Assembly: GCF_003334355.1 (NCBI RefSeq)
Contig: NZ_QOWP01000022.1
DNA: 64,000 nt
Reading direction: 5' to 3' (one strand)
Source of the DNA: Escherichia coli
GTDB taxonomy: Bacteria; Pseudomonadota; Gammaproteobacteria; Enterobacterales; Enterobacteriaceae
The translations under genes were made by a program, and so were the position numbers. Below, piece by piece: positions 58,947-59,141 of this stretch. The notes under the pieces were generated by a model. The model had not been told where the DNA came from. It did not search any database and saw only the letters and a program-made list of their open reading frames with translations. Within the stretch, counting starts at the first letter, position 1; each line of letters opens with the position of its first letter.

Positions 58947-59040
58947 GCTTTTTCTCCGCAATATTCAGGCGCAAAAGCCCGATTTTCTGTTCTTCTGTTA
59001 CAAGACAGAAGAAGATATCTCTCAAAATTTGTGCTCGATC

Positions 59041-59130
59041 GGTCCCCTCTCCCTTGAGGGAGAGGGTTAGGGTGAGGGTGAACGTGCGCGCTGATGCCCT
59101 CACCCCGGCCCTCTCCCACAGGGAGAGGGC
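59041..59130. repeat. GC-rich compound palindromic intergenic element (possibly boxC-like; family uncertain)
   Basis: Seen in sequence: nested inverted repeats CCTCTCCC-TTGA-GGGAGAGG, GGGTGAGGGTG...CCCTCACCCC and GCCCTCTCCC-ACA-GGGAGAGGGC; a separate hairpin TTCTTCTGT-TACAAG-ACAGAAGAA lies at 58990-59013. Confidence 0.6.
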
Positions 59131-59141
59131 GAAAACCAACC

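Follow-up and report, generated by a model that had tools for sequence, protein, structure and literature searches.

The palindromic element that separates hrpB from mrcB in Escherichia coli is very probably a tandem inverted pair of BoxC repeats, which was inserted within E. coli, is dispensable and transcribed, and forms a hairpin that likely serves as an exonuclease barrier or a leaky stop. The palindrome itself is already known, its two halves being catalogued members of the BoxC/PIT/TMECO/HPGQ family. To these catalogues we add the boundaries of the 107-bp composite with its non-palindromic ends, the allele frequencies in 5,426 genomes, the polarity of the insertion, an allele in the opposite orientation, and a link to the published maps of transcription start sites (TSSs) and RNA 3' ends.

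The window, that is, the whole 64-kb stretch of DNA that was analysed, is oriented in reverse of K-12, and both hrpB and mrcB lie on its minus strand, 195 bp apart. A preliminary description of the sequence had reported a GC-rich palindromic element in this gap, and its existence was confirmed by repeat searches and folding. The repeat search returned two perfect 10-bp hairpins, with the arms CCCTCTCCCT/AGGGAGAGGG at 59045-59066 (59045-54/59057-66) and GCCCTCTCCC/GGGAGAGGGC at 59108-59130 (59108-17/59121-30), together with a GGGTGAGGG/CCCTCACCC pair and an outer inverted repeat of 27 nt with 81% complementarity. The GGGAGAGGG motif was present five times in the window (0.19 expected), four of these copies being located in the hrpB-mrcB gap, as were both copies of GGGTGAGGG. 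The folds were stable: the entire gap gave -94 kcal/mol as minus-strand RNA (z = -6.5), and the 107-nt element about -33.6 kcal/mol as DNA (z about -6). The architecture differed from the three separate stem-loops initially proposed, since the minimum-energy fold of either strand was one long imperfect hairpin of ~40 bp and the repeat logic was that of two inverted three-block units. Likewise, the element had been said to fill the 195-bp gap; the repeat is indeed there, but the repeat proper accounts for only 107 of the 195 bp.

Each unit consists of the blocks CCCTCTCCC / GGGAGAGGG / GGGTGAGGG. A BoxC unit runs CCCTC[T/G]CCC(C), a loop of 2-5 nt, GGG(G)AGAGGG, a second loop that reads TTA in type A and CCG in type B, and GGGTGAGGG. 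This arrangement was found twice in the gap, as a type A unit on the plus strand and a type B unit on the minus strand (Table 1). In local alignments with TMECO, the type B unit matched at 34/34 positions and the type A unit at 26/36, against a shuffled maximum of 13. The original BoxC consensus, that of Bergler 1992 / Bachellier 1999, reportedly measures 56 bp, and the family has been treated by Bergler 1992, Bachellier 1999, Hoyne 2000 and 2002, Holder 2015 and Kaplan 2016.

The comparison with boxC that the preliminary description had suggested gave the identity of the element. Both units are listed among the TMECO triplex motifs of Holder et al. (2015, Table 1, PMC4666352), with TMECO #1 (type B) at 164,547-164,580 on the plus strand of K-12 MG1655 and TMECO #2 (type A) at 164,631-164,597 on the minus strand. 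They also correspond to the G-quadruplex motifs HPGQ 5 and HPGQ 6, respectively, reported between hrpB and mrcB by Kaplan et al. (2016, PMC5100583). We have re-derived the published K-12 coordinates on NC_000913.3, and these matched the sequence, with both units and the other published pairs found as stated. The equivalence of BoxC with PIT and TMECO is taken from Holder et al., who equate the TMECO motif with "BoxC" (Bergler 1992) and "PIT" (Hoyne and Maher) (PMC4666352). According to the same authors, inverted pairs always combine a type A with a type B unit (PMC4666352), which held for the window pair and for the four other K-12 pairs that we retrieved. The element shares with the family an identical sequence, the three-block unit, the intergenic location, the A + B inverted pairing, the multicopy character and polymorphism at the level of the locus, and nothing essential sets it apart.

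A count of copies genome-wide had also been proposed. Using a 46-nt query that represents one unit, we obtained hits in 5,409 of 5,426 complete E. coli genomes, at a median of 18 places each (range 1-36), and only 59 of the 88,450 places were plasmid-borne. The hits fell under no annotated feature, and the five other K-12 sites retrieved were all intergenic. The limits of the composite were set by a paralogous copy between phnD and phnE (strain MINF_7C), which has the same two units, the same spacer and the ends TGTGCTCGATCGGTC and [A/C]GAAAAC, beyond which the sequences diverge; the alignment of five pairs supported the same limits. In the window, the composite is ordered as the leader TGTGCTCGATCGGTC, the type A unit, a 16-nt spacer, the inverted type B unit and the tail CGAAAAC. 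Among the K-12 pairs, those at fepB-entC, ygfF-gcvP and alx-sstT have the same architecture and related ends, the lldD-trmL pair shows the opposite arrangement with its C-rich ends facing each other, and the same subfamily is represented by a half element at xynR-argF. Depending on the E. coli strain, the phnD-phnE gap measures 125 nt and holds a BoxC pair, 60 nt with a collapsed BoxC hairpin, or 105 nt with a REP/BIME pair, so that two unrelated repeat families occur as alternative alleles at one site.

Table 1. Features of the hrpB-mrcB region, in window positions.
Feature	Position	Strand	Basis or remark
mrcB ATG	58944-58946	-	
mrcB leader, invariant TTGAGAGAT to ATG	58947-59025	-	Outside the repeat; alignment
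Leader hairpin 2 (UCGGGC...GCGCCUGA)	58965-58982	-	97.2% of cells paired
Leader hairpin 1, the "AT-rich hairpin" (TTCTTCTGT/ACAGAAGAA)	58990-59013	-	9 bp, 6-nt loop
Composite BoxC/PIT/TMECO pair, 107 bp	59030-59136		Termini of the paralogous copy and five-pair alignment
RNA 3' end	59040 (K-12 164,636 +)	-	Term-seq, M63 OD 0.4; 5 nt beyond the final GGGAGAGGG arm
Type A unit CCCTCTCCCTTGAGGGAGAGGGTTAGGGTGAGGGT	59045-59079	+	TMECO #2, HPGQ 6
Spacer, loop of the long hairpin	59080-59095		Folds; also kept in the phnD-phnE paralogue
Type B unit CCCTCTCCCTGTGGGAGAGGGCCGGGGTGAGGGC	59096-59129	-	TMECO #1, HPGQ 5
68-codon ORF, TTG start	58933-59139	-	Through the repeat and the mrcB leader; D8B36_18480 in PMC10869245
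hrpB stop	59142-59144	-	
Nearest upstream TSS listed on the mrcB strand	59441 (K-12 164,235)	-	Inside hrpB; Cappable-seq, PMC4782308

The element had been described as neither REP nor ERIC, and we reached the same result, as both consensus sequences aligned at chance level rather than cleanly. The best local score in the gap was 8-9 for the REP (PU) stem GCC[G/T]GATGCG... (shuffled mean 8) and 10 for the ERIC core (shuffled mean 9.8). REP-like matches were present elsewhere in the window and none in the hrpB-mrcB gap. Like REP/BIME (PU) elements, BoxC units are short GC-rich intergenic palindromes, often arranged as inverted pairs and often polymorphic, which lie within transcribed UTRs and are probably able to stop 3' exonucleases; unlike them, they show only chance-level similarity to the REP consensus and are built of three blocks instead of one stem. 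No RAYT-type transposase is known for BoxC. With ERIC/IRU sequences the element shares the character of an enterobacterial, intergenic, transcribed imperfect palindrome of ~100-130 bp that is present or absent from strain to strain, but there is no sequence similarity, and ERIC is not made of C-rich and G-rich nonamers. An Rfam search at a permissive E-value returned only sub-threshold eukaryotic miRNA hairpin models (≤29 bits, with gathering scores ≥55).

The preliminary description had also related the element to a hairpin downstream of yaeH (CATTCCCCTC...GAGGGGAATG, about 39992-40024). We could not uphold this link. The yaeH hairpin has only a C-rich motif in common with the BoxC pair and is single-copy per genome, which places it outside the dispersed family. 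It was found in 3,567/5,426 E. coli genomes, a number near that of the full BoxC pair given below, and the two may track the same lineages.

We have then surveyed the alleles of the locus by megablast against the 5,426 E. coli genomes, a check of presence or absence that had likewise been proposed. The full pair, with its 195-nt gap, was present in about 3,280-3,430 genomes (61-63%, a figure obtained partly by subtraction), while an empty site with a 93-nt gap was found in 414 + 1,471 = 1,885 genomes (34.7%). A collapsed allele, in which a 64-bp deletion between two direct CCCCTCTCCC repeats leaves a single hairpin, occurred in roughly 230 genomes (about 4%); the 36-mer junction query matches the collapsed phnD-phnE paralogue as well, which makes the count approximate. 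A further allele is 6 bp longer through duplication of GGGTTA. Finally, 32 genomes (0.6%) had a pair in the opposite orientation. A simple flip of the K-12-type pair was ruled out as its origin by the different non-palindromic ends and type A unit: the opposite allele has GGGTATG[A/G]GCAGTC and CCCTCGCCCC, compared with GTGCTCGATCGGTC and CCCTCTCCC in the K-12 type. Judging by these sequences, the opposite-orientation pair is a different member of the family.

The gap was empty (93 nt) in E. albertii, E. whittamii and Escherichia sp. MOD1-EC7003, indicating that the pair was gained within E. coli. The strain E69, recorded as E. coli, carried the opposite-orientation pair, and SCPM-O-B-8794 and Escherichia sp. 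E1V33 had collapsed forms, one of each orientation. The absence of the pair from 1,885/5,426 E. coli genomes and from the three Escherichia outgroup species rules out a necessary role at this locus; as a third of the strains are devoid of the element, it could at best have a modulatory role here. Hence, the pair is dispensable and an ordinary repeat rather than a dedicated control element.

The diversity of alleles bears on a reading in which the element would work as a DNA structural switch, alternating between a purine-motif triplex or G-quadruplex, a hairpin and duplex, and thereby regulating its neighbours or programming instability. Its sequence would permit G.G:C, A.A:T and T.A:T triads, its three blocks are arranged as expected for a purine-motif triplex, and four G-runs are present in GGGAGAGGGTTAGGGTGAGGG. 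Triplex formation and a G4/hairpin switch have been observed in vitro on single strands (PMC4666352, PMC5100583), and TMECO loci were reported to be unusually variable, more so than control loci, with palindromic pairs collapsing to single hairpins by a "palindrome effect" (Holder et al., PMC4666352); at least five alleles occur at the present locus. Against this stand the findings that double-stranded TMECO formed duplex only, that DMS footprinting in vivo showed no sign of a triplex, and that the motifs have neither a functional class nor a fixed distance to the neighbouring genes (PMC4666352). The variability is equally well explained by slippage between direct repeats within a palindrome. 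We therefore regard a DNA switch as improbable, and consider that the two direct CCCTCTCCC repeats, together with the palindromic shape of the pair, favour deletions and rearrangements at this locus.

Other Enterobacteriaceae were examined at the same gap. A complete BoxC unit was found there in 25 of 76 species, the carriers including Enterobacter, Lelliottia, Leclercia, Huaxiibacter, Phytobacter and Intestinirhabdus. In an alignment of 77 sequences, the variable material of the gap stopped exactly at the invariant TTGAGAGAT. Several arrangements were seen in individual taxa. In Salmonella and Citrobacter, a REP-like palindrome (GCCGGATAAGGC...GCATCCGGC) takes the position that BoxC has in E. 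coli; in the Enterobacteriaceae strain RIT691 the gap is expanded to 509 nt and holds five BoxC units; in UBA3516 a module that joins a BoxC unit to a terminator-like hairpin is present as three tandem copies; and in Enterobacter species the unit is directly preceded, on its upstream side, by two to three copies of GTGCGGCCTGA in tandem. A record named "Chryseobacterium sp. 18061" showed a typical Enterobacteriaceae hrpB-mrcB locus with BoxC units and is probably a mislabelled or contaminated assembly.

Such a distribution could be produced by a non-autonomous element of the MITE type, still mobile today and with this spacer as its target. The empty site of the outgroups, the presence at the same site of two different members, of which the K-12 type points one way and the E69/SWYHX138 type the other, the phnD-phnE paralogue with identical termini and the recurrence of BoxC units in the same gap of Enterobacter, Lelliottia, Leclercia and others all speak for mobility. 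However, no convincing target-site duplication was seen at the filled/empty junctions here or at phnD-phnE, and neither an associated transposase nor terminal inverted repeats beyond the BoxC arms were identified. The filled-versus-empty junction is not a clean insertion, and the phnD-phnE sample contained no empty allele, only BoxC, collapsed BoxC or REP. In addition, the family is not associated with transposons, phages or plasmids (Holder et al., PMC4666352), in keeping with the few plasmid-borne places counted above, and the same pattern could arise if lineages exchanged the whole spacer by homologous recombination. Given the lack of a target-site duplication and of a transposase, mobility is something we infer, and we consider a currently mobile element rather unlikely.

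To place the pair relative to transcription, we have compared it with published maps. Among the plus-strand TSSs listed for MG1655 in supplementary file 1 of the Cappable-seq study (PMC4782308), those around the locus are 162,077, 164,015 (weak), 164,235 (strong) and then 167,428; none is listed between 164,235 and 167,428 in the one growth condition covered. The 164,235 TSS is 495 nt upstream of the mrcB ATG and is preceded by TGGATA-17-TACACT. By eye, this matches the consensus at 8 of 12 positions, and our promoter scan, which used a cut-off of 9 of 12, returned no site there. Since the nearest listed TSS lies inside hrpB, mrcB would have a long 5' UTR that contains the repeat, and mrcB transcripts appear to read through the BoxC pair.

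An RNA 3' end maps just beyond the hairpin (Table 1; Adams et al., bioRxiv 10.1101/2020.07.18.207399, supplementary files 1 and 3). It is weak, with about 987 reads in one of three growth conditions. Term-seq 3' ends located 4-12 nt past BoxC hairpins were found at three loci, namely at 164,636, at 3,781,065 (plus strand, lldD-trmL) and at 624,567 (minus strand, fepB leader), and such 3' ends may be a general property of the family. Adams et al. (bioRxiv 10.1101/2020.07.18.207399) flag the lldD 3' end as a Rho-dependent region, and its intrinsic-terminator score of 1.3 does not reach their cut-off of 3.0. A further 3' end was noted at 624,680, just before the fepB-entC pair.

It had been proposed that the element terminates hrpB and insulates the promoter of mrcB, which would make it a dedicated intrinsic terminator with an insulated promoter between the element and mrcB. 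This interpretation was partly supported. Of its first part, the RNA 3' end past the hairpin was upheld, a dedicated terminator was not. A GC-rich stable hairpin begins 12 nt past the hrpB stop codon and an RNA 3' end lies 5 nt beyond it, as would be the case for a Rho-independent terminator. Yet on the minus strand the stem is followed by GACCGAUCGAGCAC, so that the GC-rich stem plus U-tract that characterizes intrinsic terminators is not found, and scans for sigma-70 promoters, and for intrinsic terminators on either strand, returned no site between 58850 and 59250. BoxC also differs from Rho-independent terminators in the low score of the lldD 3' end and in that mrcB transcripts must pass through the element. 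Furthermore, Hoyne & Maher 2002, as cited in PMC4666352, detected neither promoter nor terminator activity of PIT elements, nor any effect in vivo, and the pair is missing from the outgroups and from over a third of E. coli genomes. The second part did not hold. An RpoD holoenzyme site was located in the spacer by genomic SELEX, from which the promoter TTGAGA-17-TGTAAC was guessed (Shimada et al. 2014), and a weak promoter within the gap is thus possible; however, the guessed -10 (TGTAAC) falls in the variable loop of a leader hairpin and is not conserved in other genera, and no plus-strand TSS is listed in the gap in the Cappable-seq file. Taken together, a dedicated terminator and promoter insulator seems to us a poor prospect.

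Instead, a block to exonuclease trimming is more likely than promoter insulation. The BoxC pair would be transcribed as part of the hrpB 3' UTR and of the mrcB 5' UTR, and in the RNA it would fold into a very stable hairpin of ~40 bp with a 3' end just beyond. For transcripts derived from hrpB, this hairpin would hold up 3'→5' exonucleases, or else serve as a weak, leaky stop, and the remaining read-through would be enough for mrcB expression. REP elements are thought to act as exonuclease barriers likewise.

The AT-rich hairpin that the preliminary description had counted as part of the compound repeat turned out to be a separate, conserved RNA structure. We have aligned the leader of mrcB in 77 sequences, from 76 Enterobacteriaceae species and the window. 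Conservation started exactly at TTGAGAGAT, and the last ~80 nt before the mrcB ATG were kept in all 77 sequences. In leader hairpin 1 (the AT-rich hairpin), 96.2% of cells were paired, compared with 45-57% in slid controls, and five of the nine pairs showed compensatory changes, as exemplified by one position with GC in 42, AU in 19 and UA in 6 sequences. None of 500 shuffles reached its covariation score, and RNAalifold independently predicted the same helix. For hairpin 1, 64 G.U cells were counted against 6 A.C, and G.U pairs numbered 96 on the mrcB sense strand against 6 A.C cells, a strong strand bias that points to an RNA structure on the minus strand. Leader hairpin 2 was likewise almost completely paired (Table 1), with one-sided changes only (A-U/G-U), and its covariation support is weaker than that of hairpin 1. 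Rfam gave no match on the mrcB leader. A conserved leader peptide starting at an invariant TTG was considered and rejected, in view of early stops in 14/77 sequences and several 1-nt indels; the frame was open in 63/77.

BoxC, REP or terminator modules were repeatedly found immediately upstream of the invariant TTGAGAGAT, and such modules may tune the leader strain by strain. One could go further and see in the leader an undescribed cis-regulatory element for PBP1b synthesis, tuned by the neighbouring repeats, with the curli effect considered below being due to the RNA of this leader or of the BoxC hairpin. We hold this fuller version to be quite unlikely.

The 68-codon ORF that runs through the repeat and the leader had been taken for an artefact, and our data agree with this. 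Its first half stems from translation of the repeat, and the second lies over the leader; in the empty, collapsed and inverted alleles the ORF is either altered or cut short, and the corresponding protein cluster contains only E. coli/Shigella entries named "hypothetical protein". In the RefSeq rows sampled, only hrpB and mrcB were annotated under the match. The contrary reading, that of a real gene for a 68-aa protein repressing curli, comes from a report (Biofilm 2024, PMC10869245) in which, as described there, a pUC19 clone of D8B36_18480 gave a white Congo-red phenotype and csgA expression 18-fold lower; this reading is also favoured by the many records of E. coli and Shigella that annotate the ORF as a hypothetical protein. 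Besides its fate in the other alleles and the repeat-derived N-terminal half, such a gene would have a TTG start and no consensus promoter, is unannotated in the current RefSeq rows sampled, and in the part common to all alleles overlies an RNA leader with compensatory base-pair changes and, in several species, one-nucleotide indels. The clone phenotype reported in PMC10869245 fits an effect of protein, RNA or DNA alike, and may come from RNA or DNA rather than from a protein. A curli-repressing protein gene is accordingly, in our view, extremely improbable.

These results have consequences for annotation: the region should carry the label of a BoxC/PIT repeat pair, and the 68-codon ORF deserves suspicion despite the phenotype described in one paper. 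The conserved leader hairpins offer a modest new lead on the regulation of mrcB, whose product, PBP1b, is a major peptidoglycan synthase. Thousands of strains with a filled, empty, collapsed or inverted allele in the mrcB 5' UTR constitute a clean natural experiment, and whether BoxC repeats have any function could be addressed at this locus by means of isogenic alleles.
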